Part shown: piece by piece, positions 7,320 to 56,278 of the stretch | How positions within the stretch are numbered: position 1 is the stretch's first letter | Layout of the letters: each line of letters begins with the position of its first letter | IMG/VR virus record: IMGVR_UViG_3300031519_004866 | DNA: 64,000 nucleotides | Direction: 5' to 3' (one strand) | Source: a virus | The notes under the pieces: model-generated | Database searches by the model: none | What the model saw: the letters and a program-made list of their open reading frames with translations, nothing else | What the model was told of the DNA's origin: nothing | Made by a program: the position numbers and the translations under genes

Positions 7320-10300
7320 TATGTTCTCCCTACCGCTACTTCAATGGTTCCAATATGATCGCTATCATATGTTTCTAATGCTTTACCAATGATAGTTCCT
7401 GCTCTAACATCACCATCGGCTGCAATTCCTACTCCGTGTATTGCTGCTGTCACTATCAAATCGCCTTTGTTAATTTTACCAACTACTCTAACTGGAATTC
7501 TGCCTTGTAATCCAACAAGGTTTTTAAGTCCAGGACATGCAGTATACATAACATATGCAGCTCTATCTGAAACAACGCCTGCTACTCTTGTATCAGCATA
7601 TCTATTAGATGTAGTAACTTCCTTGTCACCCCCAAATACTAACACTGTACCGACTTCGTATTCCTTGTCACCCTCGTAGTATTCAGCAAGGTCAGCAGCA
7701 TAAGTTGCTTCAAACCTTGATTCGCTTGGTGTTGTTCCTGTTAATGACCAACGTCCTGTAATTGTACCTGCTGTAGTATTACCACCAGTAGTTAACGCAG
7801 TAGTAAGTACTTGTGATGTTTCAATTGGAGCAAGTGAAACACCGCTTTGTGTTCTAAATCTGTGGTAATCGTTATCATAAAAGTTACGTTTATCAGATGC
7901 TAACGAACCTGTTTGTAAGTATAACCCACCACTACCGCTTGATCCTGTATAAAGTCTTGTGTAACTAGCAGTACCAGATGTACCATGCGCCATTGTTGTG
8001 TTGCCGCTGACTGTAAACGAATTTGTAGCGTTCCATATTCTTGCACTAGCATCTGCGTTACCGTCTCTTTGTATCAATGTACTTGAAGTTGAATTTGATG
8101 TTGCTTCAATTATGCTATAATCAACATCAGCAGTATTACTAGATCCACTAATTCTTCTTAAGAATCCTGTACTACTATATTGTGTTTTCTTAATAGCACC
8201 ACCGTCATCAACAATAGTAGTAAATGTTACATCGGCTGGTGTTGCAGGAGCAAGTGTGTTATTACCAATTACAGACTTAGCAGCAACATTTGTTAGTTTT
8301 GATTTTGGAATAGTACTGTTTGTAATAGTTACCCAACCGTCAGTAACAGTAAAGTATGTATTATCAAGTGCTACAATGCCTTTTTCTGCTTGTGTAATGC
8401 CAGTTGCATTTGCTCTTGTTTGGGCATTGGCCATAGCTAACTTACTTTGAGCAATCGCTGCTGATGCATTAATATCATTGTTTAAAATAACACCTGGTTG
8501 TATCTGTGCATCAATTGTACCAAGTGTTGAGTCTATGTCTAATGTAATATCACCAACTACTGTACTGTTAATAGCATCGTTACCGTTGCCAGTAAACACT
8601 AAAAGATCATTTGCTTTAAGGTTAGTAACTGTAAATTCTTGTAAGTTAGTAAATGTTAAACTTCTAAGGTTAACACCGTCTGTTGGTTGTGTAGGATCTG
8701 CAATATCAATAATCTTTTGATTACCTAGCGACATTGGAGACTTCATAGACAACGACCCGTCTAGAGCCATAAAGCCACCACTAATTGATGGTATTAAGTT
8801 AGCTTGTGTAATAGGAGCACCACTATGCGATGTACCTAGTCGTCTTTCCATATAAAGTCTTGTTGCGTTCTCTGTTGGAACAGTATCAACAGCGTTATCA
8901 GTAAATGCTGAGTCTGTTGAAAATTCACTAACTGGAACACCACGTTTAAATCCAATACCGTCCAAGTTACTCAAAGCAATAGCTGCTGAGAATGTAACCT
9001 GACCTGTACCTTGGTCAACTCTAAAGTATGGTCCAACGTTGAAGTTACCAAATTGGTCAGTGGTTACATAGAACACACGTCCCACTGTACGTTCATCAGT
9101 TTCAGTGTCAGGGTTAAATGCGTTAACCGGTGGTCCATAAATTTCTGTTGGATAGTTTGTATCAGCATATGAGCCAGTACCAATCTCAAGTAAATCGTGT
9201 GATGTAACACGAGTCAATGAAATCCTAATTGTTAGCTTACCTCTAGCACCAAGCGACCCTCTACGCACCGCTGATTTAATAGAGTATGTTGCTTCAAACT
9301 GTGTTAAGCTATCTACTAATGGACGGTCAAGTGTAAGTCTGCCCCATGGATTACCAGTTACAGTTTCATCTTCGTAGGTGTCAATTACATATATTTCACC
9401 GTTCCATACAAATGTACTACCTGCTACTCTTGATCTTTCTTGCGGTGCAACAGCAACAACTGCAAAACTACTATCTCCTACTGCCCCTGTTGGAACATGA
9501 TATGTATGTGTACCTGTTTGTGTGCCAGTTGTGTCAACTTGAACAGCGCCTGCTAGTGTTGGATATCCAACACTTACTGTAAATGTGTTTGAATCTAAAA
9601 CTGTGTGTACAAAGTAATGGTTACTTGTGTTTAACCCTGTTGGCAATGCGCCTGTGGTGTTAAGAGTAATTGGGTCACCTTGACTAAATCCGTGGCTGGA
9701 TTTTGTAATCACTCCTGGACTTGCAACCGACACTGTAAATGTCTGTGTTGTAGCAGCTTTTGCTTCACCTGGTTTGTAAACAGTTAAGTCAATGTAGTTA
9801 TAGTTTTCTCTAAGTGTTGTTCTAGTAAGACCTTCAATAATCGCACTATGCGTACCAGTACCAGTATTAGTAATTTCAACTGGCCCAGCTCCGTTAATAA
9901 TATTTGATATTTCAAAAGTTGTTGCAGTTAGATTTTCTTCTCTAATCCAATACGTTTCACCTGCAGTGATTCCTGCTGGTAATGTATTACTTGAACTAAA
10001 ACTTAGTCTATAGTTGTATAGTAGTTTGTGTGGAACAACTACTTTTAAATTAGGAGTTGCATCTGATAGTGTTACTGCACTACCGCCTGCAGATGTACTT
10101 AAAACAACGCTAGTATATGCTGGTACGTCGATAACATGGTATGTTGTACCGCCAGTTAATCCACCACCAGAGCCGTCTGGAACAATTGTATCTCCAACAA
10201 CTAATCCGTGATTCTGACTAAATGTTGCTACATTTCCGCTTGATGCAGTTGTTGATATAGTTGCTTTAAATGTAAACACACCAGGATTAGTAGCAGTAGC

Positions 10301-13300
10301 AGTAAATTCATAATTACCTCTACTATCTGTTTCTGACTCAAATTGTAACACACGATAAACATCAGTGTATTCTTGTAAAATCAAACCTGTGGATGGTCTT
10401 GTAGCAACGTTAACAAGTTCACCTGTTAACATAACCTGTGAGTTTGAACGTAATGACATCTTAGTGCCGTTTGGAATAACAGCAAATATTCCGTCAAAGT
10501 TACCAGTTGTGTCGCTGGTTAAGTTAAGTCTAACAACACCTGCAGGTAAGTCGGCAGTTGCAACCGATGTAACTGGGTATCTATAAATTAGGTTTCCGTG
10601 ATTAACTTCAAGTTCTGAATTGTTTAATGGTGTATAATCGTAACCACTAACAAACAAAAACAGTCCGCTTTGTACGTTTGCATACGATGCACTAGGGAAG
10701 TAACATTCAACTGATTGTGCTAGATCATGATACAATGTTGTTGGTGTCGGAACTTCTAATGGATCCGAGCCTTCAGCAACAAGTGCGTAGATACCATGCG
10801 CACTTGACCCACCAACGGATCTAATTTGCGCACCGTTAATTGACATATACGAAGCATAACAGTAATATGTAAACATAGATACTGCTTCTGTTAAACCACC
10901 GTTTGTTGCTAGTAGGCCGTAACCCATATCAGCAACTTGTGTAAAGTCGTTTGATAGCATTGATCTGTTACCAGGCATCAATACTTCATAAATTCTTTCG
11001 TGACTGTGTGTTCCAGACCCTGCTGTAGTTGTGTTAATGTCTACACCACCCGGCGTAGCACTAACTTGGAACGTGTTAGTAGTTATATTTGTACCAGATA
11101 CATAATAATCTTGCCCAACTACTAACGGCGAAGGTAGTGTTCCTGTTGTAGTAAATCTAACAACAGCACCTTCTTGTAGTCTGTGTGCTACTCTTGTAAA
11201 TGTTGCTGGACTTGCTTGTGAAATAGTTGTTACAACAGCACCAGCAGTTCTAGTAAAAGCAGTAGTTTCATCTAAAATAAATGATGCAGATGATCCGTTT
11301 TTATTGTATACAAAATCTCTAACATAGTTAATTCTAAAAACAGTGTCATCAACAATAAACGACGCAGGCAACTGCGGCAGTCTTTCTAATCCTGTAACTT
11401 CAATTCTTGTATTAGATGTTGATGAAGCGTGTTGAAACTGTAAGTTACCAGCAAAGCCGTCAACAAACATACCACCAGCAAATGTTTGCTTGTTAATAGA
11501 TTTACTAAATGATGCAGATTCTTGACAGTACGGTGACTTAGCAAGTATTTGTCCTTCTGGATCAAGCACCATCATAAAGCCGCCATGTCCTTGACCAGTA
11601 ACAGCTCTAATAATGTTAGCATCGTTCATTAAGAACACATCTAGTACATCATTTTCTTTTGGATAGTTAACTGAACCTGAACCGTCCATAACATCTTCAA
11701 TAGCATCAAATAATTCAGCAACTACTCCTTGTGAGCCAGTTTCTGCTATGAATGAAGTATCAATAATTTGTAGTGCAGTAGTAATTGTGCCAGGTAGTGC
11801 AACGTTGGTAAGAACATAGTCAATTGCTGTTTGGGCTCTTTCAAGACCTGCAATTGTTTGAGATAGCTGCGCACCAATAGCAACACGCCCACTCGCACTT
11901 TGATAATATTTTAAACCTGCGGAAATTGTTCTGTTATATCCACCATACTTTATATCAAAGATCATAGCGTCAACAACTAGTCCAACATCACGTTTACATA
12001 GTGCTTGATTATATGTAAATGATTGTGTAAACGGTGCAGTATTTGTAGCAATCTGCTGATTGATCCATTCAACAACTTCGTTTTGGATAAACGATTTGTT
12101 TAATTTAATAAGCGCCGCAGCCTTTGTACGTCCGCCGGCATTATCAATTTTAGGGTATACAGGTGCAGTTGAATCACTTAGATAATGATGACCGTATAAT
12201 TGTGTTGCAACAGTCAACCCGTCAACTACAGGGTCTCTTCTAAACTTCTGGAATGACCAAGGAGAACTCGATGTTCCTGGTCTTGGCTTAATTAATACTC
12301 GTCTAAATTCATCACCAATGATAGCAACGTTCTGCGGTACTTTAAGTGGATAGTTTTCTTGGTATATGCCACTTTCAATAAACAATGAAATTTGTACTTG
12401 GTTAGTAATGTCACCGTATGAAATAGCTTCGTCAATTAAGAATGTACCATACTTAATGTCAACATCAAATATTTCGTTGCCGTTACTATCTAATGCACCT
12501 GAGTGTGCTAGTATCTGTGCTAACGCTCCAGATGTTTCACCTCGTAAGTATAAACCTTCTCTAATGTCTCTAGTTCTAAATGCTACAGGAGTATCTGTTA
12601 ATACATCACCTGTGTAATCTGTACGATATCCGCCGGTTGCTAATAAGAATCTTGGTAAGTCAACTTCAACTGTTGGTACTGTTGTAAAGTTTGAACCTGC
12701 ATCTAAAATGTCAACACTAGTAATAATTCCGCCACTAATAACTGCATTACCAAACGATCCTACAGCCGGAAGTGGTGCGCTTACTCTTACTGATACTAAA
12801 CTATAACCACTACCACCAGCACTAATATCAACCCCATTGACTTTATATGTAATATCAAATGTAGCTCCAAGACCAAATGTACTATCGGAAGTAGTTACAA
12901 CTCCTACAGTTCCTGGTAATACTGTATAATCACCTTGTGCTACTAGTTGAAACGTTGTAATTGCACCTGGAGAAGTTGCTGTTGAAAGCACCTTAATAGT
13001 TGCACTTGTTCCTGTACCACCTGACAGTGTAATAATATCGCCTGCTTGATAGTTTGCCCCAGGAGCATTCATTGTAACTTTGTCAACACTCATTCTAGCA
13101 GTACCAGCAAATCCAGTACCTGAATCAGGTGAAGTATCAATTTGTGATAGTGTTACAATTCCTGAACCGTTATTGTAAGTAAGTTGTTTTTTGTATGGAC
13201 CAATATCGTCTAATGATTCTAAAACAATTTCTTCTGCACGTTTTAGAGCAGCTTCAATTGTTTTGTATGCATAAGCAAGAGCTCTACCTTGTAGTTCTTC

Positions 13301-13975
13301 ACTTACACCTACTCTTTCGTCTTGTCCTGATGTAGCAACATAAAGATTTACACTACTACCAAACGCTGCACCATCAACATATTGTTTTGTTGCAGCAATT
13401 AAGCCGTCATATAGCTCGTCATCTTCTGGCTCTGGGCTTCTGCTTAAAATTAACGGCCCTGTCATAGTACCAAACGCTACGTTTTGGTTGCCTGTAGCAG
13501 GGTCAATAGTACCAACACCTGCTCTTGAAATTTTAGTATCTGCGTATCCTTTAGAAGCAGCCTCATCTGAAGTTACCGGAGTATCTAAGCCTTGAATTCT
13601 GTAGGTGTTACCACCTGATTGTACTGAAAGGTTACCACCTAGTTGTGGTGAAGTATCGCCTGAAATTTCACTAAATTCAGTGGATATAATAATTTGGTTA
13701 GAGTTTGATATATCATCAACTGTGATGCCAAGACCAGCTGTAAGTTGCTTAAACTGTACTCCGTCAGTGGTTGGATTAACCGCTAATATTGCACCTTCTT
13801 GCCCTAAGAATGACTGTGGTGTATCATCAAGAGCAATAAATGTAAGTTTATCACCAAGTCCTAATGAGCTATACAGCTCTTTGAAGTTGTCATTTGTTTT
13901 ACGAAACGAATCTCTAATACTATCGCCGGTACCGTCGTTTCCAATACTACCAATATCTACAATTTTACGTGCCAT
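7319..13975 (-). CDS. Giant tail fibre/virion protein (2218 aa) with C-terminal peptidase G2-like chaperone domain
   Basis: gp9/10-like N-terminus (DIGSIGNDGTGDSIRDSFRKTNDNF), several HGxxxGD/TYYV modules, C-terminal ADLAEYY...GTVL...GRIPVRV.G.I.KGD...GTIIGKALE. Confidence 0.85.
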   Translation of the reverse strand: MARKIVDIGSIGNDGTGDSIRDSFRKTNDNFKELYSSLGLGDKLTFIALDDTPQSFLGQEGAILAVNPTTDGVQFKQLTAGLGITVDDISNSNQIIISTEFSEISGDTSPQLGGNLSVQSGGNTYRIQGLDTPVTSDEAASKGYADTKISRAGVGTIDPATGNQNVAFGTMTGPLILSRSPEPEDDELYDGLIAATKQYVDGAAFGSSVNLYVATSGQDERVGVSEELQGRALAYAYKTIEAALKRAEEIVLESLDDIGPYKKQLTYNNGSGIVTLSQIDTSPDSGTGFAGTARMSVDKVTMNAPGANYQAGDIITLSGGTGTSATIKVLSTATSPGAITTFQLVAQGDYTVLPGTVGVVTTSDSTFGLGATFDITYKVNGVDISAGGSGYSLVSVRVSAPLPAVGSFGNAVISGGIITSVDILDAGSNFTTVPTVEVDLPRFLLATGGYRTDYTGDVLTDTPVAFRTRDIREGLYLRGETSGALAQILAHSGALDSNGNEIFDVDIKYGTFLIDEAISYGDITNQVQISLFIESGIYQENYPLKVPQNVAIIGDEFRRVLIKPRPGTSSSPWSFQKFRRDPVVDGLTVATQLYGHHYLSDSTAPVYPKIDNAGGRTKAAALIKLNKSFIQNEVVEWINQQIATNTAPFTQSFTYNQALCKRDVGLVVDAMIFDIKYGGYNRTISAGLKYYQSASGRVAIGAQLSQTIAGLERAQTAIDYVLTNVALPGTITTALQIIDTSFIAETGSQGVVAELFDAIEDVMDGSGSVNYPKENDVLDVFLMNDANIIRAVTGQGHGGFMMVLDPEGQILAKSPYCQESASFSKSINKQTFAGGMFVDGFAGNLQFQHASSTSNTRIEVTGLERLPQLPASFIVDDTVFRINYVRDFVYNKNGSSASFILDETTAFTRTAGAVVTTISQASPATFTRVAHRLQEGAVVRFTTTGTLPSPLVVGQDYYVSGTNITTNTFQVSATPGGVDINTTTAGSGTHSHERIYEVLMPGNRSMLSNDFTQVADMGYGLLATNGGLTEAVSMFTYYCYASYMSINGAQIRSVGGSSAHGIYALVAEGSDPLEVPTPTTLYHDLAQSVECYFPSASYANVQSGLFLFVSGYDYTPLNNSELEVNHGNLIYRYPVTSVATADLPAGVVRLNLTSDTTGNFDGIFAVIPNGTKMSLRSNSQVMLTGELVNVATRPSTGLILQEYTDVYRVLQFESETDSRGNYEFTATATNPGVFTFKATISTTASSGNVATFSQNHGLVVGDTIVPDGSGGGLTGGTTYHVIDVPAYTSVVLSTSAGGSAVTLSDATPNLKVVVPHKLLYNYRLSFSSSNTLPAGITAGETYWIREENLTATTFEISNIINGAGPVEITNTGTGTHSAIIEGLTRTTLRENYNYIDLTVYKPGEAKAATTQTFTVSVASPGVITKSSHGFSQGDPITLNTTGALPTGLNTSNHYFVHTVLDSNTFTVSVGYPTLAGAVQVDTTGTQTGTHTYHVPTGAVGDSSFAVVAVAPQERSRVAGSTFVWNGEIYVIDTYEDETVTGNPWGRLTLDRPLVDSLTQFEATYSIKSAVRRGSLGARGKLTIRISLTRVTSHDLLEIGTGSYADTNYPTEIYGPPVNAFNPDTETDERTVGRVFYVTTDQFGNFNVGPYFRVDQGTGQVTFSAAIALSNLDGIGFKRGVPVSEFSTDSAFTDNAVDTVPTENATRLYMERRLGTSHSGAPITQANLIPSISGGFMALDGSLSMKSPMSLGNQKIIDIADPTQPTDGVNLRSLTFTNLQEFTVTNLKANDLLVFTGNGNDAINSTVVGDITLDIDSTLGTIDAQIQPGVILNNDINASAAIAQSKLAMANAQTRANATGITQAEKGIVALDNTYFTVTDGWVTITNSTIPKSKLTNVAAKSVIGNNTLAPATPADVTFTTIVDDGGAIKKTQYSSTGFLRRISGSSNTADVDYSIIEATSNSTSSTLIQRDGNADASARIWNATNSFTVSGNTTMAHGTSGTASYTRLYTGSSGSGGLYLQTGSLASDKRNFYDNDYHRFRTQSGVSLAPIETSQVLTTALTTGGNTTAGTITGRWSLTGTTPSESRFEATYAADLAEYYEGDKEYEVGTVLVFGGDKEVTTSNRYADTRVAGVVSDRAAYVMYTACPGLKNLVGLQGRIPVRVVGKINKGDLIVTAAIHGVGIAADGDVRAGTIIGKALETYDSDHIGTIEVAVGRT

Positions 13976-14563: not shown

Positions 14564-14877
14564 TCTCAATCACACAGTCAGCTATCGACCACATGTCGAC
14601 TCTGATCACTGAACAAGGCCAACCTGTCGTCCGACTTCAAGTCAAGGGCGGCGGGTGCGCCGGATTTCAATACGAATGGAAGATGGAAGATGCTGTTGAA
14701 GCGAATGACGAAGTTATTGACTTACCCAATGGCAAGTTTGCTATTGATGAGTTTAGTGTTATGTATGTCGCTGGCACTGAAGTTGATTTTGTTAAAGAAG
14801 TTTTTGGATCTCAACTTGTAATTAGAAATCCTAATGCAACATCAAGCTGCGGCTGCGGCGAGAGTTTTGCTGCCTAA
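14539..14877 (+). CDS. iscA: Fe-S cluster carrier IscA/ErpA/HesB family
   Basis: GGGCAGFQY and C-terminal CGCGESF; start uncertain (14539 or 14593). Confidence 0.92.
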   Translation: MDNLEKRLVSITQSAIDHMSTLITEQGQPVVRLQVKGGGCAGFQYEWKMEDAVEANDEVIDLPNGKFAIDEFSVMYVAGTEVDFVKEVFGSQLVIRNPNATSSCGCGESFAA

Positions 14878-15891
14878 GTAATGCTCATACAATTTAATAC
14901 TCGCTAAATTCTTACATTTACTTTCACACATAATATCTGCATAGTCTAAGAAACTTAATGCCCAGTCATTAACTTTATCATTAGGATAATAATCACTGTG
15001 CGCTCTTAGTTTACCTTTTTTGTAGCCTTGTTCTAATAGTACAGGCATATCAGGCATAGTGTCATGTGCAAAGCCTTCAGGCAAGTGTTCTGTTCTGCTG
15101 TAGCTGTAATGCATTGCAGGACGTACACCGCGCCAACTATCAACTATGCGTTTAAATCTATCATCGGTGGGTAAAATATATTCACCTTCTCTTGCCCAGT
15201 GATGGTGTATGTCGAGTACAAGTGCGCAGGTATTGGCAAGCTCAAGACTGTCTGCGATTCCCCATTTGTTTTCGTCGTTCTCGATCGTAATAGTGTTTCG
15301 CGCCTCTTGAGAAAGTCTGTTGTTGACTGCATGTTTAATACCGGCTGGACCTTGCCTGCCTGATATATGGACGTTGCACTTGAAGTCTTGGAATGTGCGT
15401 CCATAGCCCATCCAGCGGATGACATCGGTGTGATATTCAAATTCTTCTATGCTCCTCTCTACTATTTCCGGACTATCTGAAGCAAGGACTGTAAATTGGC
15501 CTGGGTGCATGGAGAGTCTAACATCGAGGGCTCTTGCTTGTTTGCCAACGTTTGCAAAGTTTTTCTCACAGTACGCAACAACATCCGGCTTGCGCCAAAA
15601 ATAAGACCACTCATGCTGAGTATACACAGGAAGTACATCACTACCAAGTCTAACCATTCGTAATTCATTTGGTAAACCTCCAACATATGTAATTAGGTTC
15701 ATGTACGATTGTACATTATGAACCATAATATCCCACAACCGTTCTTCAGCAACTTCACGGGTTTGTCTATTAAGCCACTGTACTGTTGTACTTTTTGTAT
15801 TTAGTGGCCGCTGAATTTCTTCTAATACTTTCTTAGTCTGTGTTTGGTCCGGGTGCATGTATTTACATGCGAAGCCTATACGTTTAATCAT
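14842..15891 (-). CDS. uvsE: UV damage endonuclease UvsE/UvdE
   Basis: RIGFAC, RLSMHPGQF.VL.S, NVHISG, TIENDE, LDIHHH, HSDY, MCESKCK motifs. Confidence 0.92.
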   Translation of the reverse strand: MIKRIGFACKYMHPDQTQTKKVLEEIQRPLNTKSTTVQWLNRQTREVAEERLWDIMVHNVQSYMNLITYVGGLPNELRMVRLGSDVLPVYTQHEWSYFWRKPDVVAYCEKNFANVGKQARALDVRLSMHPGQFTVLASDSPEIVERSIEEFEYHTDVIRWMGYGRTFQDFKCNVHISGRQGPAGIKHAVNNRLSQEARNTITIENDENKWGIADSLELANTCALVLDIHHHWAREGEYILPTDDRFKRIVDSWRGVRPAMHYSYSRTEHLPEGFAHDTMPDMPVLLEQGYKKGKLRAHSDYYPNDKVNDWALSFLDYADIMCESKCKNLASIKLYEHYLGSKTLAAAAA

Positions 15892-16588
15892 GTTGTTTTA
15901 ATAATTCCCAAGTGTGTTTCCAGTCTATTACAGTATAACACATTCCTAAATCATTGTCAATGATTTGTCGCTTTAAAGGATAGTCATTTCCTTCTTTGTG
16001 CATAGCATCACCAAAAAAGTGTAGTTCGTCATTAGAATCAAAGTCGCTTAATATTTGACTTTTATCATTGCCACGTGGTGCAATATCAATACCAGTTTCG
16101 CCACCTACAGTTGCTTGTAAATTTGGAAACAAATTATTGAATTCTGATGCAATTTTATTTCGTTCGTTGTGTTCGTTGTCGTAAATAGCATACAGTTTGC
16201 GTTCTTTCATTGTAGCATTACGCCCTACAATACTATAGTTTACCATACCTGTACGATTTTCAATATGTAATCCAGTGCGTAAAGGAAATGTACTTTCGAC
16301 TAACTTTCCATCTAAAAAAGACTTTTCTACTAACGGTAAAACCCAGTCTGAACTTCTAATATTCTTTCCAGCTTCCCAAACATCACTACCGCTACAATTG
16401 TAAACAGTATTAACATTTTCAACAATACTAGTACCAACTTGTTCTACAGTTTTAGGATAGTCACTGCCTGTAACAAGATGTACAGCGTTGTCGTATGTGA
16501 ACTCTAAAAACCAGCGTTGAAAATCAGCATTAATGCGCTGCCTGCTAGGTGTTAGTGTTCCGTCAACATCAAAAATAAATCGTTTCAT
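15884..16588 (-). CDS. HAD-superfamily phosphomannomutase-like enzyme
   Basis: FDVDGTLTP, VTGSD, GG.TGIDI.P.G.DK, FFGD...GNDYP motifs of HAD-type (eukaryote-like) PMM. Confidence 0.85.
   Translation of the reverse strand: MKRFIFDVDGTLTPSRQRINADFQRWFLEFTYDNAVHLVTGSDYPKTVEQVGTSIVENVNTVYNCSGSDVWEAGKNIRSSDWVLPLVEKSFLDGKLVESTFPLRTGLHIENRTGMVNYSIVGRNATMKERKLYAIYDNEHNERNKIASEFNNLFPNLQATVGGETGIDIAPRGNDKSQILSDFDSNDELHFFGDAMHKEGNDYPLKRQIIDNDLGMCYTVIDWKHTWELLKQHD
15932..15960 (-). promoter_or_regulatory. Sigma70-type promoter for uvsE (inside PMM 3' end)
   Basis: TTGACA-N17-TATACT with TG extension. Confidence 0.7.
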
Positions 16589-17563: not shown

Positions 17564-18376
17564 TTATTGCCAGTTGTCAACTACAAAACTATCTTTTACT
17601 TGTGCTGGATTTGGATCTCCATGAAACACTGCAATTGAGCAATCTGAATGTGGTTTAATATCGTTTCTAATATCTCTAAAGTTTCGTTGTCCGTCACGCA
17701 TTGTTAATTCATCACGACTGCGTATTTCCCATTTGTAACTTTGTATCCATTCGTCAGGCCAAAATCTAAGTTCTTCCCTACACTGTTGCCAAATCCAATC
17801 TTGGTCACCGTGGAGTTTTTGAGCGTGAGCTGGATTTTCAATAAACCTTTGAAAGATTTTTTGTTGGGTTCTAGCATTCCATGCCATAACTGAACTGTTT
17901 AAATGTTTGTAACCAGGATGGAACTTTCTATTAAAATCTCTAATTCCTATAAAATCATCTAGCCACACATTACAAAATTTATCAATACTCTTGTGTACAA
18001 CAACATCAAGATCCATGTATAATATTCTACCTTCTAATGGTAATGACGGATCAAACATATGTACTTTGTGCCACCAACCTCGAGGATATCCTTTGTTTGG
18101 TATAACAATGTTGTTTACGCCTTCTATAGGTTTTGGATCATCAGTTAAGCAATTGAACGTGTATGGCACATGACAATGTCTTGCAATCATGTTGCGTAGT
18201 TTAATAACATATTCGTGTCCGTACTTGTTACCAAACCTAACACATAAAATGTTTGTTACTGGGCCATTGTCGTTTTGACGGAGTTTATCAGTATTTCTAA
18301 ACTCTTTTTCTAAACGCCTAGCTGCTTTTTGCGCTTTACGTTCTGCCTTAGTAAAGTTGTGGTTTTCTATAGCCAT
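17564..18376 (-). CDS. Glycosyltransferase (GT-A fold, GT8-like)
   Basis: LYMDLDVVV (DxD), NSSVM, GDQDWI, VFHG.PNP. Confidence 0.8.
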   Translation of the reverse strand: MAIENHNFTKAERKAQKAARRLEKEFRNTDKLRQNDNGPVTNILCVRFGNKYGHEYVIKLRNMIARHCHVPYTFNCLTDDPKPIEGVNNIVIPNKGYPRGWWHKVHMFDPSLPLEGRILYMDLDVVVHKSIDKFCNVWLDDFIGIRDFNRKFHPGYKHLNSSVMAWNARTQQKIFQRFIENPAHAQKLHGDQDWIWQQCREELRFWPDEWIQSYKWEIRSRDELTMRDGQRNFRDIRNDIKPHSDCSIAVFHGDPNPAQVKDSFVVDNWQ

Positions 18377-18379
18377 TCA

Positions 18380-19162
18380 TTAGCACTCAGCATGGCGGAC
18401 AATGCTGTCGACCACTGCTTCAAAATCTTTTAAATGTAATGCATTAGGTCCATCGCTAGGTGCGTTGTCTGGATCTTCGTGTACTTCTAAAAAGAAATTC
18501 CTAATACCCAAAGCACTTGCTGCCCGGCATAAGCCAGGAACGTAATCCCTATTGCCACCGCTACTGCTTCCGTTACCACCTGGTTTTTGTACAGAGTGGG
18601 TAACGTCGAATACGATATCAGCACTGATATTGTTAAGCATGTAATCCATACCAGTGAAATCAACGACCAAAGTATTATATCCAAAACTAGTTCCTCTTTC
18701 TGTAATCCAAACCTCTTTGGCACCTTCAGTTTTACTTAGTATATTTTCAATATCCCATGGTGCTAAGAATTGTCCTTTTTTAATATTAACAATTTTATCT
18801 GTAGCACATGCTGCCTGCACTAAATCTGTTTGTCGGCATAAGAACGCTGGAATCTGTAAAGCATCTACAGTGTCGTTAAATCCTTCTGTAATCCAATTGA
18901 TTTGTGGTACTGTATGCACGTCAGTGATTGTCTTTACAAGAAGTCTATCTTTGATAGTTTCAAAATCGTGTAGTGTAGCATTTAATCCAAGTCCACGCTG
19001 ACCGTTAATACTTGATCTATTTGCTTTATCAAAACTAGCTTTAAAGTAATATTCAATACCGTGCTTTTCACATACACGTTTACACTCTTCAGCAATTCTT
19101 AATGATTGCTTTAGTGATTCGTGCTGACACGGACCTGCTATAATTCTCATACCTTCCGTCAT
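18380..19162 (-). CDS. kdsA: KDO8P synthase
   Basis: IAGPCQ, KASFDKANRSS, TDVH, QIPAFLCRQTDL, NIKKGQFLAP, ERG.SFGY, DVTHSVQKPG, EVH.DP..A.SDG; start may be 19150. Confidence 0.96.
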   Translation of the reverse strand: MTEGMRIIAGPCQHESLKQSLRIAEECKRVCEKHGIEYYFKASFDKANRSSINGQRGLGLNATLHDFETIKDRLLVKTITDVHTVPQINWITEGFNDTVDALQIPAFLCRQTDLVQAACATDKIVNIKKGQFLAPWDIENILSKTEGAKEVWITERGTSFGYNTLVVDFTGMDYMLNNISADIVFDVTHSVQKPGGNGSSSGGNRDYVPGLCRAASALGIRNFFLEVHEDPDNAPSDGPNALHLKDFEAVVDSIVRHAEC

Positions 19163-19645
19163 TTAATCTTCCTTGTATGTTTCTCTGCGTGTATGATATG
19201 GTGTATAGATTGCACTGTTTGCACCGTGTTCTGCACACTCTGCCGACTCACACCAACAACGATTGTTAGTTGCTTCACGTATAAGTTTATCTGCAAATTG
19301 CCATGCATGTTCTGCAAACTTCTCTGCACCTACACCATCAAATACTCTAATCTCTGCTAAGCCTTTAGCTTCAAGATCCATAAATGTTTCCATGTGTGGA
19401 TCTTTAACATCAATTGCTGTTTTGTGATCGAAATGATCTTCTAACCAAGCCTTCAAAGGTTTTAATCCTCCAAAGTCAACTGCCCAGTTCTTATTGTCTA
19501 AATCACTGCAACCAAATACAAACTTAAATTGTAAGCTGTATCCGTGTAGTAAATGACAATGCGAATGATCAGCATTAGGTTGTCTAAACACAGCACTCAA
19601 CCCAATGTTGTGTCCGTATGTTTTTGTTGAAAAATATTGTCCCAT
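19163..19645 (-). CDS. queD: 6-pyruvoyl tetrahydropterin synthase / QueD family
   Basis: HC.LLHGY, VDFGGLK, FDH, AE.FA, E...N.A motifs. Confidence 0.88.
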   Translation of the reverse strand: MGQYFSTKTYGHNIGLSAVFRQPNADHSHCHLLHGYSLQFKFVFGCSDLDNKNWAVDFGGLKPLKAWLEDHFDHKTAIDVKDPHMETFMDLEAKGLAEIRVFDGVGAEKFAEHAWQFADKLIREATNNRCWCESAECAEHGANSAIYTPYHTRRETYKED

Positions 19646-19653
19646 AATTGTAA

Positions 19654-19692
19654 CTCCTATATATGGGCGGCAGAATTAGAAGGGTTGACGCC
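19654..19692 (-). ncRNA. Candidate cis-regulatory pseudoknot in queD 5' leader
   Basis: GGCGUCA/UGCCGCC stem (one U-C mismatch); loop CUUCUA complementary to SD UAGGAG. Confidence 0.4.
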
Positions 19693-19720
19693 AAGACCTT
19701 TTGTTAATATAATAATACTA

Positions 19721-19748
19721 ATTATACACGATCTTGTGCAGAAGTCAA
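19721..19748 (-). promoter_or_regulatory. Sigma70-type promoter for queD-kdsA-GT operon
   Basis: TTGACT-N16-TATAAT. Confidence 0.6.
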
Positions 19749-20353
19749 GATATTGATTTAAAAAATTGTTCAAAACGCACATTAGGCTTTTTCCACTGTG
19801 CTGGAAAGTCCCATTCGTGCATGTTTTTTATAATAAATTGTTTGTTAGGAAAGTGTTTAAAAATTAATCCAATTTGTCTAACCCAAAACGAAGGATCAAT
19901 TGGATGTGAATGTTCATCTGAATAGTTGTCTGTGCCTTTGTACAAGTTATTAACTTTCTCGTTTATTCCGTATAAATCAAATCCTAATAGAGTTATTTCG
20001 TCACTCTCTAAGTTTGCAGCAACTAACACTGCATACGGTCCACTGCCCCAGTTAATAGGTTGATTTTGTTTTTGTTCGTCGGTGTAAGGAAGTTCAGGCA
20101 CTGCATGAATACGTTTATCTTTTCTAACTTTACGAAAGTACTGATAGTTTTCTTCACGAACATATATCTTTGTGTCCGTTGTGTTCAACCCCTCAGTGGA
20201 TTCGTGTACCATGCGTCGATCACAACAGACAAGATGTTCAACCGTCATATCTCTATGTACAGCGTTACATCCTACTAATGTGTATTTTGGAAATAGTTGT
20301 GGTAAATCTAAGCCTTTTCGACTCTCTCCATTACCTAATACTAACGTTGGCAC
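19745..20353 (-). CDS. Rossmann-like protein resembling GT42/CstII sialyltransferase (or DUF115/MptE-like)
   Basis: LVLGNGESR...VGCN and WGSGPYAVLVAA...ITLLGFDLY parallel CstII IIAGNGPS...RCN and TSGVYM..A...IYLSGIDFY; GTG start. Confidence 0.55.
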   Translation of the reverse strand: MPTLVLGNGESRKGLDLPQLFPKYTLVGCNAVHRDMTVEHLVCCDRRMVHESTEGLNTTDTKIYVREENYQYFRKVRKDKRIHAVPELPYTDEQKQNQPINWGSGPYAVLVAANLESDEITLLGFDLYGINEKVNNLYKGTDNYSDEHSHPIDPSFWVRQIGLIFKHFPNKQFIIKNMHEWDFPAQWKKPNVRFEQFFKSIS

Positions 20354-22581: not shown

Positions 22582-23268
22582 TTACGATTTAATTGTGTCC
22601 ATCAACGGAAAGATTTCTGCGATTACTTTAGCACAAGCATGGGCAATTTCCATGTGTTCTTTTTGAGTGCCATTGGCTCCACGTAGGTCAATATAATGTA
22701 CCCAACTACGAATACTACCTTGCATATACAAACGTGACTTAGTTAAGCCTTCTGGCAAAACTTTACGAGCTTGTTCTTTAGCAATACCATTTTCAATTGC
22801 CCAGTCATATGCATCTTTTGCGGCATCAATTACTCTTTGTTGTTTATTTTTCCAAGTGCCTTGGAGAATAGCATGTCCATCACTTTCAGGATCTAAGTCA
22901 ACAGAGTTCTGCCTGTTCTTAGGATCTTGCAAACGTGCTTCACTTATTACAAACTGATCACCCATACTTGCTGGATCAGCATACCGTTGACTAAATTCTT
23001 GAAACGCAAAACTACGATGTCGAACAACCTGGTGTGCAATATCTCGAGTGGTATCAATTTCCAATGTGGCGTTAACCATTTCGAGTGGTGACCAATGTTG
23101 GTGTTTAATCAAATACTTAATTAAGCGTTCGCTAGTTTCCATATTGATTTGTGCTGTAGGATTTGAAACCTTTGCACAAAATGCAATAAGTTCCTGTAGA
23201 TCTGTTAAACCTTCTGCTTCAAAATCATCCGTTGCTTTTGAATAGCATACTAGACGTACTGCTGTCAT
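22582..23268 (-). CDS. thyX: FAD-dependent thymidylate synthase
   Basis: HWSPLE, RDIAHQVVRHRSFAFQEFSQRY, EQAR.VLP, LR....TQ.EH. Confidence 0.96.
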   Translation of the reverse strand: MTAVRLVCYSKATDDFEAEGLTDLQELIAFCAKVSNPTAQINMETSERLIKYLIKHQHWSPLEMVNATLEIDTTRDIAHQVVRHRSFAFQEFSQRYADPASMGDQFVISEARLQDPKNRQNSVDLDPESDGHAILQGTWKNKQQRVIDAAKDAYDWAIENGIAKEQARKVLPEGLTKSRLYMQGSIRSWVHYIDLRGANGTQKEHMEIAHACAKVIAEIFPLMDTIKS

Positions 23269-23525: not shown

Positions 23526-23570
23526 ACTATTTTTCCTTTTAAAATGCGGCATTCGTTTGCTGCATGTTCT

Positions 23571-23599
23571 ATTATATAAGCCTAGACTGTGTTTGTCAA
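23571..23599 (-). promoter_or_regulatory. Consensus sigma70 promoter for Hc1-like gene
   Basis: TTGACA-N17-TATAAT, perfect match. Confidence 0.85.
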
Positions 23600-23626
23600 G
23601 CATTAAAGTGGTTAAATACGTATATA

Positions 23627-24607
23627 ATGAATGATTTTACTTTAATACCGTTTCACAATATTGTTAAGTTTGGGCAAAAGACCATGCTTGACCAGCCATT
23701 GTTTAATGTTAGCTGGATATTAGGCCGCTTTTGTAATTACAGTTGTAGCTACTGTTGGCCGTATGCAAACACAAATGTACCGGATCATCAGGAGTTTGAA
23801 ATATATACTAATGCGCTTGATGAGATAAAACGTCAGGCTAGAGATAATGGCTTTACAGAATTCCACTTTAGCTTTAGTGGTGGTGAGCCTACTGCGTATA
23901 AGAAGTTTGGTGATTTAATAGAACACTATGCCAACGATGATGATGCTAAGTATCTAAGTTTGCATCTAACAACGAATTTAAGTCCAGGTAGTAAATGGTG
24001 GAACAGATTTATTGATGCTACACAGCATTTACACCGTCGAAGTATTACTGCAAGTTATCATGCAGAGTTTGCTAATGAACAAGAGTTTGGAGATAAATGT
24101 CTTCAGCTTATGAAAGGAGGAGTTTATGTTACGATCAATCAAGTTATGGTTCCTGAAATGTTTGAGGAACTTTACGAACGCCTGGAACGATTTGCCACCA
24201 GAGGTATCAATGTCACTCTCAAACCCCAATCTGACCCCACCGCATCTTTCGTTGTACATGGATACACTGAAGAACAAATCACAAGAATGCAAAGAGGATT
24301 CCCACAGCACTGGAAAGAAAAAGAAGTAATGCAAATGTACATGGAAGATGCCAAAGGCAACGACTATGGGTTGGACCAAGCTGAACGCATGAACGCTTTT
24401 GGATTTAATAAATTTAAAGATTGGACATGTAACGCAGGATATCAAAGCTGCATTATAAGCGGTGATACTGTCAAGAGAGCATATAGTTGTAGCGATAAAC
24501 CATTAGGTACGCTACAGGGCGGTTTTACGCTGTTTAAGACACCAACTAAATGTATTACCGATACATGTGTAAGTAGTGCAGACAGTAAGATACCAAAGGT
24601 AAAGTAA
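23627..24607 (+). CDS. Radical SAM protein 1 (C-terminal Twitch/SPASM-like)
   Basis: CNYSCSYC, SFSGGEPT, C-terminal C..G...C...C.....C; start revised from 23564; TAAATA at 23613-23618. Confidence 0.9.
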   Translation: MNDFTLIPFHNIVKFGQKTMLDQPLFNVSWILGRFCNYSCSYCWPYANTNVPDHQEFEIYTNALDEIKRQARDNGFTEFHFSFSGGEPTAYKKFGDLIEHYANDDDAKYLSLHLTTNLSPGSKWWNRFIDATQHLHRRSITASYHAEFANEQEFGDKCLQLMKGGVYVTINQVMVPEMFEELYERLERFATRGINVTLKPQSDPTASFVVHGYTEEQITRMQRGFPQHWKEKEVMQMYMEDAKGNDYGLDQAERMNAFGFNKFKDWTCNAGYQSCIISGDTVKRAYSCSDKPLGTLQGGFTLFKTPTKCITDTCVSSADSKIPKVK

Positions 24608-25209
24608 TGAAGATTGATATTCAAGATATAAAGTTTTGGATGGACGCTATTCGCAACAGCGAAGATAGAGACCGTACACTTGAAAGTTTTTGGGGAGGCC
24701 AGTTAAAATCAAAAACTTGGTTAATTGAAACTTTAGAAAAGTCTAATCATGTTGCCAATGCTGAAGTAGTTATATTTGGTGGATGGAATGGAGTGTTAGC
24801 TAACATGCTGTTTAATAGTAGCATAGGGTTTAAACATATTACAAGTGTAGACATTGATCCTGTATGCGAAACCGTTGCATTGACAATTAACAAACGTCAA
24901 GAAATGGAAGGACGTTTTATAGCAGTAACATCAGATATGTGTGATTACGAATATACAAATAAACCTTATTTTGTTATTAATACAAGTTGCGAACATATTA
25001 GTCAACAACAATATAATAAATGGTTAAGTAATGTTCCAGAAGGCTCGAAGATAATATTACAATCAAATAACTATTTTGACCTTGAAGAACATGTTAACTG
25101 TAGTGCATCATTAGAAGAATTTGCAAGAAAGTCTAAGTTAAAAGTATTACACTCAGCTGAATTAGAATTACCTAAGTACAAAAGATTTATGATTATAGGA
25201 AACCTTTAA
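24607..25209 (+). CDS. Class I SAM-dependent methyltransferase-like protein
   Basis: VIFGGWNG, SVDID, INTSCEH motifs; TAATG coupling. Confidence 0.7.
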   Translation: MKIDIQDIKFWMDAIRNSEDRDRTLESFWGGQLKSKTWLIETLEKSNHVANAEVVIFGGWNGVLANMLFNSSIGFKHITSVDIDPVCETVALTINKRQEMEGRFIAVTSDMCDYEYTNKPYFVINTSCEHISQQQYNKWLSNVPEGSKIILQSNNYFDLEEHVNCSASLEEFARKSKLKVLHSAELELPKYKRFMIIGNL

Positions 25210-26291
25210 TGTTTGACTTTAATGATCTAAAAACTATTCACATTGAGCTAACAACAAACTGTCAAGCAAAATGTCCAATGTGTTCAAGAAACATACACAG
25301 CGGAGTAGAAAATCCGCTATTACGAATAGTACAATGGACATTGGACGATTTTAAAACTATTATTAACAAAGAAGTACTAGACACAATTAACCGTGCGTAC
25401 TTCTGTGGTAACTTTGGCGATCCATTACTAAATGACAGTCTTATTGATATGTGCAGATATGTAAAGGACACCAGTCCTAAGACAGCAATAGGTATACATA
25501 CAAACGGTAGTTTAAGGAATGCAAAATGGTGGTCAGATCTAGCAAAAGCATTACCAGAAGACCATTGCGTTTACTTTGCTCTTGACGGACTAGAAGACAC
25601 TCATAAATTATATAGAGTTGGCACAGATTGGAATCGTATTATTGAAAATGCAAAAACATTTATTGCAGCCGGAGGCCGTGCTAACTGGACATATATCAAA
25701 TTCAAACACAACGAGCACCAAGTTGATAAATGTAGACAAATTGCAAAAGATTTAGGCTTCCAAGATTTCACAGTTAAAAACACATCAAGATTTTTAGTTG
25801 AGCCTAAGTATGATGTATGGGATAAAAATAAAATTCCACTGTATAGTTTAGAAGCACCATCTGATACCGAAACACACTTTTTACCTAAAGAAGTTATTGA
25901 CAATTATAAATCAGTTTTAGACGAAGCAGAAATAGATTGTCATGTACAACAAATAAAAGAAATATACATTGATGGTTCTAAAACAGTATTACCATGTTGT
26001 TGGTTAGCACAAACTCCAATGACTCATTATGATCCTGCACATGTTTGCGAAGATGTTATAGATATGTTAAGAGGACAATATAGTAAAATGATAAGTGACT
26101 TTGGCGGTATAAGCAATCTTGATGCAACTAAAGGAATAAAAAATATTATTGACTCTGACGTTTGGCAAAACATATGGAAAAAGAAATGGAATGAAGATAA
26201 AATGCTAATGTGTGCAAGAACATGTGGTAAGTTTAAAACATTTAATATCTCACAACCACAAGATCAATTTATTGAAAGAGAAATGTTATGA
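25209..26291 (+). CDS. Radical SAM protein 2 (C-terminal SPASM/Twitch)
   Basis: CQAKCPMC, FCGNFGDP, HTNG, FALDG, PCCW, C.RTC. Confidence 0.9.
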   Translation: MFDFNDLKTIHIELTTNCQAKCPMCSRNIHSGVENPLLRIVQWTLDDFKTIINKEVLDTINRAYFCGNFGDPLLNDSLIDMCRYVKDTSPKTAIGIHTNGSLRNAKWWSDLAKALPEDHCVYFALDGLEDTHKLYRVGTDWNRIIENAKTFIAAGGRANWTYIKFKHNEHQVDKCRQIAKDLGFQDFTVKNTSRFLVEPKYDVWDKNKIPLYSLEAPSDTETHFLPKEVIDNYKSVLDEAEIDCHVQQIKEIYIDGSKTVLPCCWLAQTPMTHYDPAHVCEDVIDMLRGQYSKMISDFGGISNLDATKGIKNIIDSDVWQNIWKKKWNEDKMLMCARTCGKFKTFNISQPQDQFIEREML

Positions 26292-27694
26292 CAGATTGGC
26301 ACTACGATAAAGAAGATACTAGATTAGGCAAGTTTCAAAGAGAGCTTGAATCTGTTTCTAGTAGTACGTTTTGTGTACTTCCGTGGATACACATGGCAAC
26401 TAGGCCTAACGGTGATATGCGCTTATGTTGTACTGCTAATGCTAGTGGAGCTGGAGACGATCACGAAGTTGGTCTTGTAAAAATGGAAGATGGCAAACCT
26501 GCAAACTTTGGCAAACATACTCCAATGGAAGCATGGAATAACGATTACATGAAAAGTGTACGTACAACTATGCTTAAAGGAGAGATCCCTGCAAGTTGTA
26601 AAGGATGTTTCAAAGAAGAGTCACAAGGCATTGTTAGCAAACGTATATGGGAAAGTGCAACATGGAAAAATGATGAAGGTATTGATATACCAGAACTTAT
26701 TGCACAAACACAAGAAGACGGAACCGTGCCTGAACAATTAAAATATCTGGATCTAAGATTAGGACATACATGCAATATTAAGTGTGTAATGTGTAGCCCG
26801 CATGATTCAAGTAAGTGGGTTGCGGACCATAAAAAACTTATTCCTGTACTACAAGACCCAGAAGTTAAAAGACAAATGCAATGGGATAAGAAACTTTTTA
26901 ACAACAAATGGCACGAAAAAGATGCTTTTTGGCAAGAACTCAATGCGCAAATACCTTACCTTAAACAAGTATATTTTGCTGGAGGAGAGCCGTTAATGAT
27001 CAAAGAGCATAAACGCTTTCTTAAAGAAATTATTACACAGGGCTATGCTGACAAAATTTTAGTAAGGTACAACTCCAATGGTTTGCTAGTTGACAACGAG
27101 TTAATTGATATATGGAGTAAGTTTAAGAAAGTTAAATTTGCAGTAAGTATCGACTCGTATAAAGAGCGTGACGAATACATTAGATTTCCAACTAACTTTA
27201 AACAAGTTGAAAGCACATTACATTTACTAGATAACACTCCCGACAACATTCATGTTAGCATTGCAACAGCAGTACAAATATTCAATATAAAAACTATACC
27301 CGAATTTATTAAATGGAAAGTTAATAGTAATTTTAAAAAGATGAATGTTGGTTTGATTGATGGACATATTATGGGAGGCGGCCTTTTAAATGCACACTTA
27401 GTACACATACCAACATTTTTAAATATTACAATACTGCCTGAAAAAGACAAGCAAGAAGTACGTGAAAAGTTCGCTGAACTAAAACAATGGTTATGGAATA
27501 ACTTTACACAAGACGATGAGTTTTGGAAACACAATCCTAAAGGTTGGCGCCAATGGGAAGGGTTACTAAAGCACATGGATAGTTGTGATAACAGTCATAT
27601 GTTACCTGGCTTTAAAGAGTATGTAAATAAATTAGATGCAATCCGTGGCTTGAATGCCGCATCAGTATTTCCGGAGTTATCACATTTACTATGA
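26288..27694 (+). CDS. Radical SAM protein 3 (N-terminal Twitch-like domain)
   Basis: N-terminal FCVLPW...RLCC...C.GC; CNIKCVMC; FAGGEP; YNSNG. Confidence 0.92.
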   Translation: MTDWHYDKEDTRLGKFQRELESVSSSTFCVLPWIHMATRPNGDMRLCCTANASGAGDDHEVGLVKMEDGKPANFGKHTPMEAWNNDYMKSVRTTMLKGEIPASCKGCFKEESQGIVSKRIWESATWKNDEGIDIPELIAQTQEDGTVPEQLKYLDLRLGHTCNIKCVMCSPHDSSKWVADHKKLIPVLQDPEVKRQMQWDKKLFNNKWHEKDAFWQELNAQIPYLKQVYFAGGEPLMIKEHKRFLKEIITQGYADKILVRYNSNGLLVDNELIDIWSKFKKVKFAVSIDSYKERDEYIRFPTNFKQVESTLHLLDNTPDNIHVSIATAVQIFNIKTIPEFIKWKVNSNFKKMNVGLIDGHIMGGGLLNAHLVHIPTFLNITILPEKDKQEVREKFAELKQWLWNNFTQDDEFWKHNPKGWRQWEGLLKHMDSCDNSHMLPGFKEYVNKLDAIRGLNAASVFPELSHLL

Positions 27695-28701: not shown

Positions 28702-29602
28702 GAGGTATATCAGCAGCACACGTACACCATTTACGAGTACAAGTTATCCATTCTTCAGGCTGCTCAAAACTGCCATCATAGATGTTACCTATACTTCCAC
28801 CTACTCTACAAGTAGCACGATGTACATCGCCATCCCAATTAATCATTAGGCTTTCAATTCCTGCACTGCATTTCCAACCTTTAAATTGATTTAGGTGTTG
28901 TTTAATAACATCGTTGGCATGCATCTTAGTTGTGTCGTCAATAATTACATTAGGATTTACGGTAGACGTTCTGTCTAATATCCATTCTAAATCTTTACCT
29001 TCATATTTCAAATCATCAAACACATCATGGTCACCTTCTGTCCATCGTATTCGTCTTACAACATAAGGAATACAGTGTCCATCAAACATTGTAGCACACT
29101 CTTTTACTCTATCCATAAATTGATGATGTGCCATTAAGTTAACTTGAAATGGCTTTTGTGTATACGCACCTTCATTTAATTGAGAAAACAATAATACTGT
29201 TTCTGCGCATCGTCTCCAATTTTCAGTATCTTCTACGTGCAAACTAAACACAATGTGACTTACATTAAGATCGTTGTAGTACTCGGCTGTGCGGGTTCCG
29301 TTGGTAGTTACGTTAACCCACTCAAGCTGTTGACCTTGCATTGCATGATCAACTAGTTCTACAAACTGTGGATGAACACACGGCTCACCGCCTGTGAAAC
29401 TTACACGTATTGGCTTGCCAATTTCCCCTAGTGCATCAACTGCATCTAACAATACTTTAATATTTGTGTGTGGGCTAGTGTTGTCATGAATTGCTGCTGG
29501 GCAATAACTACAATCTAAGTTACAGCGTTTACCTAAATTCCATTCAACATGAACGCTATCTTGTCGATCATAACTAGAAGCTATTTTAAACATACGGCGC
29601 AA
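28679..29602 (-). CDS. Radical SAM protein 5
   Basis: CNLDCSYC, FTGGEP, TTNG, C.AG...C...C...C.C. Confidence 0.9.
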   Translation of the reverse strand: MRRMFKIASSYDRQDSVHVEWNLGKRCNLDCSYCPAAIHDNTSPHTNIKVLLDAVDALGEIGKPIRVSFTGGEPCVHPQFVELVDHAMQGQQLEWVNVTTNGTRTAEYYNDLNVSHIVFSLHVEDTENWRRCAETVLLFSQLNEGAYTQKPFQVNLMAHHQFMDRVKECATMFDGHCIPYVVRRIRWTEGDHDVFDDLKYEGKDLEWILDRTSTVNPNVIIDDTTKMHANDVIKQHLNQFKGWKCSAGIESLMINWDGDVHRATCRVGGSIGNIYDGSFEQPEEWITCTRKWCTCAADIPLTKVLQE

Positions 29603-56202: not shown

Positions 56203-56278
56203 TGGTGCCGGCAGCAAGATTCGAACTCGCGACCTATGGTTTACAAAACCATTGCTCTACCAACTGAGCTATGCCGGC
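56203..56278 (-). tRNA. trnT: tRNA-Thr(UGU), CCA encoded
   Basis: GCCGGCA TAGCTCAGTTGGTAGAGCA ATGGT TT-TGT-AA ACCAT AGGTC GCGAG TTCGAAT CTTGC TGCCGGC A CCA, 76 nt cloverleaf; TAAATA 7 nt upstream. Confidence 0.95.

Follow-up and report, generated by a model that had tools for sequence, protein, structure and literature searches.

The small H-type pseudoknot of the preQ1-I riboswitch, known from examples such as B. subtilis queC, T. tengcongensis and E. coli and divided into types I-III (Rfam RF00522), is characterised by AC/UC plus a specificity cytosine, by G5 and by an A-rich L3 (PMC11625349). The specificity cytosine is preceded by A or U and stands directly 5' of the P1 3' strand, and a G-C pair closes P1 (PMC11625349). 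In preQ1-I the 3' strand of P2 holds part of the Shine-Dalgarno sequence (SD) or feeds a terminator, and the ligand turns expression off. Replacing the specificity cytosine by U alters which ligand preQ1-I prefers. SAM-II and SAM-V riboswitches, the latter from marine bacteria and metagenomes, are H-type pseudoknots roughly 50 nt in length and act on translation; both are OFF switches in which the SD is buried in a triplex, and methionine/SAM genes lie downstream. The Vibrio vulnificus add adenine riboswitch is a translational ON switch: as long as no ligand is bound, the ribosome-binding region is paired to the 3' strand of one of the aptamer helices, and the ligand frees the start. A pseudoknot in the mRNA leader of phage T4 gene 32 is bound by the gene's own protein product, resulting in translational control.

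The leader described here lies on the minus strand of a 64-kb stretch of viral DNA, the whole of which is called the window in the following. The 39 nt quoted in a preliminary description of this DNA are present at 19692-19654 of the minus strand, and the leader RNA reads, in 5'-3' direction from 19703, CAAAAGGUCUUGGCGUCAACCCUUCUAAUUCUGCCGCCCAUAUAUAGGAGUUACAAUUAUGGG. It precedes a 160-aa ORF (19645-19163, minus strand) that codes for a QueD-like protein. The promoter proposed earlier, TTGACT/TATAAT followed by a leader of roughly 70 nt, agrees with hexamers that match at 11 of 12 positions and with a leader of about 69 nt. TTGACT overlaps the TGA stop codon (19747-19745) of a 202-aa ORF upstream, and promoter-like sites are found in the region without enrichment (5 observed, 4.5 expected). 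From the promoter a transcription start near 19714 is predicted. Contigs from four RNA libraries of three studies span the QueD-like ORF, some of them without mismatch to the window, which is weak evidence of transcription because DNA carry-over is possible. None of the contigs from these four runs covers 19718-19771 and one covers 19664-19717; this gap would fit a start near 19714, yet contigs do not show RNA ends and the gap proves nothing. A 41-codon ORF (19657-19782, minus strand) was considered as a leader peptide and rejected, as its start lies upstream of the promoter within the preceding gene. On the opposite strand, 19685-19713 (plus) reads as a promoter-like TTGACG-17-TATAAT (11 of 12 positions), the TTGACG being the complement of the P2 5' strand introduced below; this overlap with the motif is probably a coincidence.

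Two helices, P1 and P2, form an H-type pseudoknot in the leader, and the SD lies outside the knot. The elements of the leader are the following, in the order of transcription.

19743-19748, minus strand: -35 hexamer TTGACT, separated from the -10 hexamer by a 16-nt spacer
19721-19726, minus strand: -10 hexamer TATAAT; similar hexamers lie at a like distance 5' of the motif in related loci
19697-19700, minus strand: P1 5' strand AAGG, paired with 19683-19680 as judged by covariation
19693-19696, minus strand: L1 UCUU, with the second-position C19695 invariant in the family
19686-19692, minus strand: P2 5' strand GGCG-U-CA, with U19688 as conserved mismatch partner
19684-19685, minus strand: L2 AC, with C19684 invariant and immediately 5' of the P1 3' strand
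19680-19683, minus strand: P1 3' strand CCUU, with the closing pair G19697-C19683
19673-19679, minus strand: L3 CUAAUUC, 7 nt in the compact subtype
19666-19672, minus strand: P2 3' strand UG-C-CGCC, with C19670 as mismatch partner and the last two C also part of the start-codon hairpin
19662-19667, minus strand: 5' arm CCCAUA of the sequestering hairpin, sharing 19667-19666 with P2
19654-19658, minus strand: Shine-Dalgarno sequence AGGAG, in the loop of the sequestering hairpin
19641-19646, minus strand: 3' arm UAUGGG of the sequestering hairpin, including the start codon 19645-19643

Folding of the window leader by itself is uninformative: its minimum free energy is -9.7 kcal/mol (z = +0.94), which 168 of 200 shuffles equal or beat, and the single-sequence fold puts P2 in a shifted register. 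With a stability no better than that of shuffled sequences the window alone proves nothing, and support for the structure is therefore comparative. The motif has a length of about 47-54 nt and comes in two subtypes. The larger, main subtype reads AGAGG-AC-U(n)-NNNNN-U-C-R-N-C-CCUCU-NUAAAYAYUC-Y-G-C-NNNNN, the compact subtype, to which the window belongs, NAGG-NC-UU-RGCG-U-C-A-W-C-CCUN-CUAAUUC-U-G-C-CGCY. P1 occurs as AGAGG/CCUCU, AGUGG/CCACU and AGACG/CGUCU in the main subtype and as AAGG/CCUU, GAGG/CCUC and UAGG/CCUA in the compact one. L3 has 10 nt (NUAAAYAYUC) in the main subtype and 7 nt in the compact subtype, where the short P1 goes along with the short L3, as is expected of a loop spanning P1. 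P2 has 7 bp with a central U19688.C19670 mismatch that is conserved across the family. The helix GGCGUCA (19692-19686)/UGCCGCC (19672-19666) with its U-C mismatch had been drawn in the preliminary description as P1; it is conserved and covaries, and it corresponds to P2 of the knot. The unpaired positions, namely the L1 C, the L2 C, the U.C mismatch and the L3 adenines, are strictly conserved; in leaders L081-L200 this invariance of the core is imposed in part by the search pattern, and it is also seen in the protein-anchored set. We propose a junction pocket made up of C19684, the G19697-C19683 pair, the U19688.C19670 mismatch and the A/U-rich L3.

Alignment with MAFFT alone misaligned the P1 5' strands, and a covariance-model alignment was used instead. 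The model was built from 51 main-subtype leaders, with P2 as the sole annotated helix and the compact subtype left out. It found the window site as the single meaningful match in 64 kb (18.6 bits, E 0.049), aligned as expected, and in a search of the window plus 99 loci it gave one match each in 99 of the 100 sources. The covariation among homologous leaders on which the preliminary description had made its proposal depend is present: over 99 sequences the covariation score is 0.583 compared to 0.164 for shuffles (0 of 500 reach the observed value) and at most 0.15 for slid partners, and standard pairs fill 94.8% of the P1 and P2 cells compared to 71.9% in shuffles, controls that overstate significance since the leader sequences are related. 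Each of the five pairs of the outer P2 shows 4-6 pair types in the 99 sequences; the inner purine-pyrimidine pair of P2 is A-U in 65 and G-C in 34 cases, and one P1 pair is A-U in 62 and U-A in 36 cases, both with zero mispairs. These counts are not circular because P1 is absent from the model and the P1 5' strand and the outer P2 are absent from the search pattern. Among 66 unique leaders of the compact subtype the P2 outer pair is G-C (50), A-U (15) or G.U (1). The fourth P1 pair varies more (A-U 33, G-C 6, U-A 2, mismatch in 25 of the 66), giving a P1 of 3-4 bp. Judged by this comparison of sequences, the pseudoknot is real, strongly conserved, uncatalogued and restricted to phages, and the window carries its compact subtype.

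Relatives of the QueD-like protein are encoded by 570 IMG/VR stretches. Among the 80 loci retained, a conserved island set in differing flanks is common to most leaders, and the motif was found in about 82% of the 78 protein-anchored loci that could be judged. About 300 IMG/VR instances were fetched, essentially all of them 20-50 nt upstream of one QueD-like (PTPS-fold) family. A DNA pattern for the main subtype matched at least 120 viral contigs; among the matches listed, all have the complementary P1 5' strand, and the downstream ORFs (119/119) fall into one QueD-like BLAST cluster. The pattern for the compact subtype matched at least 116 contigs; a QueD-like ORF lies at most 80 nt away in 114 of the matches listed, the other two being a contig edge and a chance match. 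Three phage genomes of 216-382 kb contain one copy each of the motif. Viral contigs from marine, brine and lake sources carry it by the hundreds, and the window recurs in near-identical form in metagenomes (seawater, marine and brine) from at least 13 studies. Among 50,697 phage records, blastn with 2.1 kb gave no match, and the proteins of cultured phages nearest to the QueD-like protein share at most 54% identity with it. We also searched one genome each of 185,579 prokaryote species with exact patterns that take in the larger part of the main subtype: the AGAGG-type pattern had no match in these genomes and the AGUGG-type pattern had two. Both matches (L202 and L203) are contigs of 5-6 kb with phage synteny that were binned into Bacteroidota MAGs, one assigned to an uncultured Bacteroidetes and one to Crocinitomicaceae; at most they give a weak host hint, and they may be a binning artefact.

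The 3' strand of P2 is common to the knot and to a hairpin that encloses the start codon, and the two folds are therefore mutually exclusive. In the window the overlap amounts to 2 nt only (C19667 and C19666). The hairpin, from C19667-G19641 through A19662-U19646, has a predicted energy of -6.7 kcal/mol, near balance with P2 alone (-5.2 kcal/mol) and P1 (about -0.7 kcal/mol). When the 3' part only of 129 unique leaders was folded, 4 nt or more of the P2 3' strand were paired with the ribosome-binding window in 118, and the AUG or the SD was paired in 115 of the 129; about 10% of leaders are without a clear sequestering helix. All 65 leaders of the compact subtype have a paired AUG, and in 64 of the 65 the platform excludes the aptamer fold. 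The hairpin partner varies along with P2, as in AAGUCAUC/GAUGACUU, GUGUCAUC/GAUGGCA and GCCGU/AUGGC, and further matched partners are CACUCC/GGAGU, UCCU/AGGA and CCCUC/GAGG; the leaders' own platform duplexes have a mean of -8.06 kcal/mol, compared to -6.16 kcal/mol when partners are swapped between P2 classes. A subgroup of the main subtype (for example leaders L186, L131, L098 and L129) stands out by its lengthened platform, in which an additional conserved stretch, CAUCAAACUUGCUAC...GGAGACUAGAGAUGGC, forms a nested hairpin within the start-codon helix. Because the knot and the start-codon hairpin exclude each other, whatever stabilises the knot is expected to free the AUG, and an ON switch is predicted. 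The preliminary description had assumed the reverse, an OFF logic with a sequestered SD, and this part is not supported, as the P2 3' strand competes with the start-codon hairpin.

The gene behind the leader is followed by two genes on the same strand.

19163-19645, minus strand: QueD-like/PTPS-fold gene, 160 aa, with an HGY motif (Pfam PTPS 47 bits; PHROG 2389)
18380-19162, minus strand: KdsA, 3-deoxy-8-phosphooctulonate synthase (333.9 bits, cut-off 242)
17564-18376, minus strand: GT8-like glycosyltransferase, which accompanies the QueD-like gene downstream more constantly than any other gene (128 of 200 loci)

The name queD given to the gene before can be kept in part. It is supported by the PTPS fold and by the match to PHROG 2389, 'QueD-like 6-pyruvoyl-tetrahydropterin synthase', but the protein reaches only 31 bits with the QueD equivalog TIGR03367 (cut-off 89.25), carries HGY, and belongs to a family found in large phages that lack DpdA/TGT and QueC. 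HGY replaces the HGH of the Cx3HGH zinc motif in 197 of 200 relatives. An HGH-type paralog is present at three motif-bearing loci, and one locus has HGH and HGY in tandem: there (L181, 2112-3001, plus strand) a single motif is followed by an HGH-type gene (141 aa), an HGY-type gene (162 aa) and a glycosyltransferase gene, which hints that the two paralogs may work together. The KdsA gene starts at the base right after the QueD-like stop codon, and KdsA is found between the QueD-like gene and the glycosyltransferase in 16 of 200 loci (the window and 15 others). A PDB sequence search with the GT8-like neighbour gave no match. At some loci a QueE-like radical-SAM gene and a phosphoribosyltransferase gene are also present. 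Further genes of the surroundings were recorded as well. A HAD-IIB hydrolase (15884-16588, minus strand) lies in the same operon behind the QueD-like gene. A UvsE-like UV damage endonuclease (14842-15891, minus strand; TIGR00629 112.9 bits, just below cut-off) keeps synteny with the QueD-like gene at 102 loci. Radical-SAM PHROG matches were obtained for ORFs 23564-24607, 25209-26291 and 26288-27694 (plus strand) and 29586-30914 (minus strand), all within 8 kb and adjoining ThyX (22582-23268, minus strand). The window also holds a tail-fibre-like ORF of 2218 aa (7319-13975, minus strand; PHROG 9851) and a tRNA-Thr (TGT) at 56203-56278 (minus strand), and in some motif-bearing genomes of jumbo size ClpP and a HIT protein are encoded near the QueD-like gene.

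GTP cyclohydrolase I (FolE) is present in all of five large motif-bearing phage genomes (records of L071, L074, L101, L139 and L130, 216-382 kb), and TGT/DpdA and QueC are absent from all five. This combination points to a pathway that starts from GTP and differs from the DpdA route known for modifying DNA with 7-deazaguanines. Such a route weakens preQ1 as the ligand, and pterin or 7-deazapurine intermediates stay candidates. A tblastn search of the 64-kb window with QueE, QueC, FolE and DpdA of Acinetobacter phage HD01 had the QueD-like gene as its sole match, which does not show absence of the other genes because the window is only part of a genome.

In several respects the phage motif is like a preQ1-I riboswitch: it is a small H-type pseudoknot in which P1 and P2 both covary, the C before the P1 3' strand is invariant and is preceded by U (41), A (28) or C (20), the G-C pair closing P1 is invariant (in the window G19697-C19683, next to A19685 and C19684), an A/U-rich L3 runs alongside P1, and a QueD-type gene is linked. 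The first L1 base, a conserved U (U6) in preQ1-I, is however A in 64, U in 20 and C in 4 phage leaders (U19696 in the window). Compared to the A-run of preQ1-I, L3 of the main subtype, NUAAAYAYUC, has three invariant A, and L3 of the window, CUAAUUC, has only AA. P2 comprises 2-4 bp in preQ1-I and 7 bp with an invariant U.C mismatch in the phage motif, whose L2 is 2 nt long. Unlike in preQ1-I, the SD is situated at least 8 nt downstream, outside the knot, the predicted direction is ON, and the motif is found in phages only. The earlier statement that the sequence does not match the preQ1-I/II/III consensus agrees with these differences and with a cmscan against Rfam 15 that was empty at the motif: no family was found there, including in slices of 81-96 nt, at E values up to 10, and weak matches (Teg49, snoRNAs, RAGATH-8) were rejected as chance. 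With RF00522 there was no match at E up to 10 in 19635-19715 of the window, in 4415-4510 of L085 or in 18 kb of eight further loci; in five motif-bearing phage genomes, scanned with a positive control that was detected, it scored at most 17.3 bits, below the gathering score of 39, and none of these hits lay at the motif. The motif thus appears to resemble a purine-type pseudoknot riboswitch but, on sequence and predicted structure, to fall outside preQ1-I. Our literature searches brought up no description of a riboswitch for preQ0, pterin, neopterin or 7-deazaguanine, of a 'preQ1-IV' or of a motif in phage queD leaders. With SAM-II and SAM-V the motif shares size, topology and level of control, but it has no Rfam match and a context of QueD-like, KdsA and glycosyltransferase genes. 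The predicted wiring of the phage leader, with the 3' strand of the aptamer pairing with the ribosome-binding region, is the same as in the add riboswitch, which differs in being a three-way junction with a validated ligand, the phage motif being a pseudoknot and a riboswitch candidate. T4 gene 32 offers the likeness of a pseudoknot in the 5' leader of a phage mRNA; the conserved loop bases and the competing hairpin of the QueD-like leader differ from it and look like those of a metabolite switch.

We consider it probable that the leader pseudoknot acts in cis as the sensor through which a translational ON riboswitch governs the QueD-like gene. The proposal of a translational riboswitch candidate stands insofar as a conserved H-type pseudoknot with riboswitch hallmarks lies in the leader of a QueD-like gene. 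The leader combines what is generally looked for in a riboswitch candidate, namely a covarying aptamer, a fixed place in the leader before related genes and a platform that excludes the aptamer fold. Without a stabilising factor the 3' end of P2 would pair with the start region, CCCAUA (19667-19662) with UAUGGG (19646-19641), and block initiation. A bound ligand would lock P2, so that the hairpin loses two G-C pairs and the AUG becomes accessible. If the KdsA gene is controlled as well, this would presumably be by translational coupling with the QueD-like gene. We infer the ON direction as well as the nature of the trigger, which is presumably a small molecule; as our best guess, it presents a guanine-like face and belongs to the route GTP - dihydroneopterin triphosphate - 7-deazapurine. 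Biosynthetic enzymes are not usually switched on by ligands related to their pathway, which counts against a riboswitch.

The tie to one gene family would fit autoregulation by the encoded protein equally well. In an operator of this kind the QueD-like protein or a phage translational regulator would recognise the pseudoknot and the hairpin would tune autogenous control; a protein-binding operator was named as an option in the preliminary description too. It is suggested by the occurrence of the motif once per genome and before one gene family only, and the conserved loop nucleotides could be protein contacts. We nevertheless regard it as unlikely, since genes of two different paralog types, HGY and HGH, follow the motif, and we know of no T-fold pterin enzyme that acts as an RNA binder. 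The pocket, moreover, mirrors that of a purine-type riboswitch, with an invariant C, a G-C closing pair and an A/U-rich L3 (PMC11625349). The same likeness raises the question of a very divergent, true preQ1-I member that binds preQ1 or preQ0. H-type topology, an AGAGG/CCUCU P1, N-C before the P1 3' strand, the G-C closing pair, an L3 starting with WUAAA and a QueD-like gene downstream would all suit such a member, which is made quite improbable by the low RF00522 scores (at most 17.3 bits where 39 are needed), by the 7-bp mismatched P2, the 2-nt L2 and a first L1 base that is mostly A, by the predicted ON wiring and by large phage genomes that lack QueC and TGT, so that preQ0 or preQ1 is not the evident product.

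It is very unlikely that the structure is independent of a ligand and merely sets a fixed translation level, stabilises the mRNA 5' end or serves as a thermometer: short helices and near-equal energies are what such an element might show, but the strict conservation of the unpaired L1 C, the L2 C, the U.C mismatch and the L3 adenines exceeds the needs of stability. Hardly any credence is left for the OFF pseudoknot of the preliminary description, in which the loop CUUCUA pairs with UAGGAG and sequesters the SD. The window sequence does allow the six pairs (-3.7 kcal/mol), and the GAGG/CCUC variants would keep the helix; it is however not conserved, and the segment pairs with AAGG (19700-19697) instead. 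The SD stays constant while the segment alternates between CCUCU, CCACU and CGUCU, by which the duplex with the SD drops from -4.7 to -1.9 (CCACU) or -1.6 (CGUCU) kcal/mol, and variants with CCUA or CCUUA break the SD helix but are compensated in P1. Because the upstream strand compensates every change and the SD does not, the partner of CCUU is AAGG at 19700-19697, beyond the coordinates given in the preliminary description.

Within the preferred riboswitch reading, we put forward tentatively, as quite possible if short of probable, that the motif represents a new phage-confined riboswitch class, in which a knot of preQ1-I shape, its P2 long and mismatched and its wiring inverted, responds to an intermediate of the phage's own GTP-cyclohydrolase route and activates a divergent T-fold enzyme. 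The sensed intermediate could be dihydroneopterin triphosphate or a 7-deazapurine other than preQ1, in host phages without the known DpdA DNA-modification system. To our knowledge few riboswitch classes are known in phages and none is known to be confined to them. With about 47-54 nt the motif is small enough for direct biochemistry. The identity of the ligand would name a metabolite that the phage monitors in infection and would provide a handle on the FolE+/DpdA-/QueC- pathway. If true, the proposed switch would show that a preQ1-I-like scaffold can be rewired from OFF to ON.
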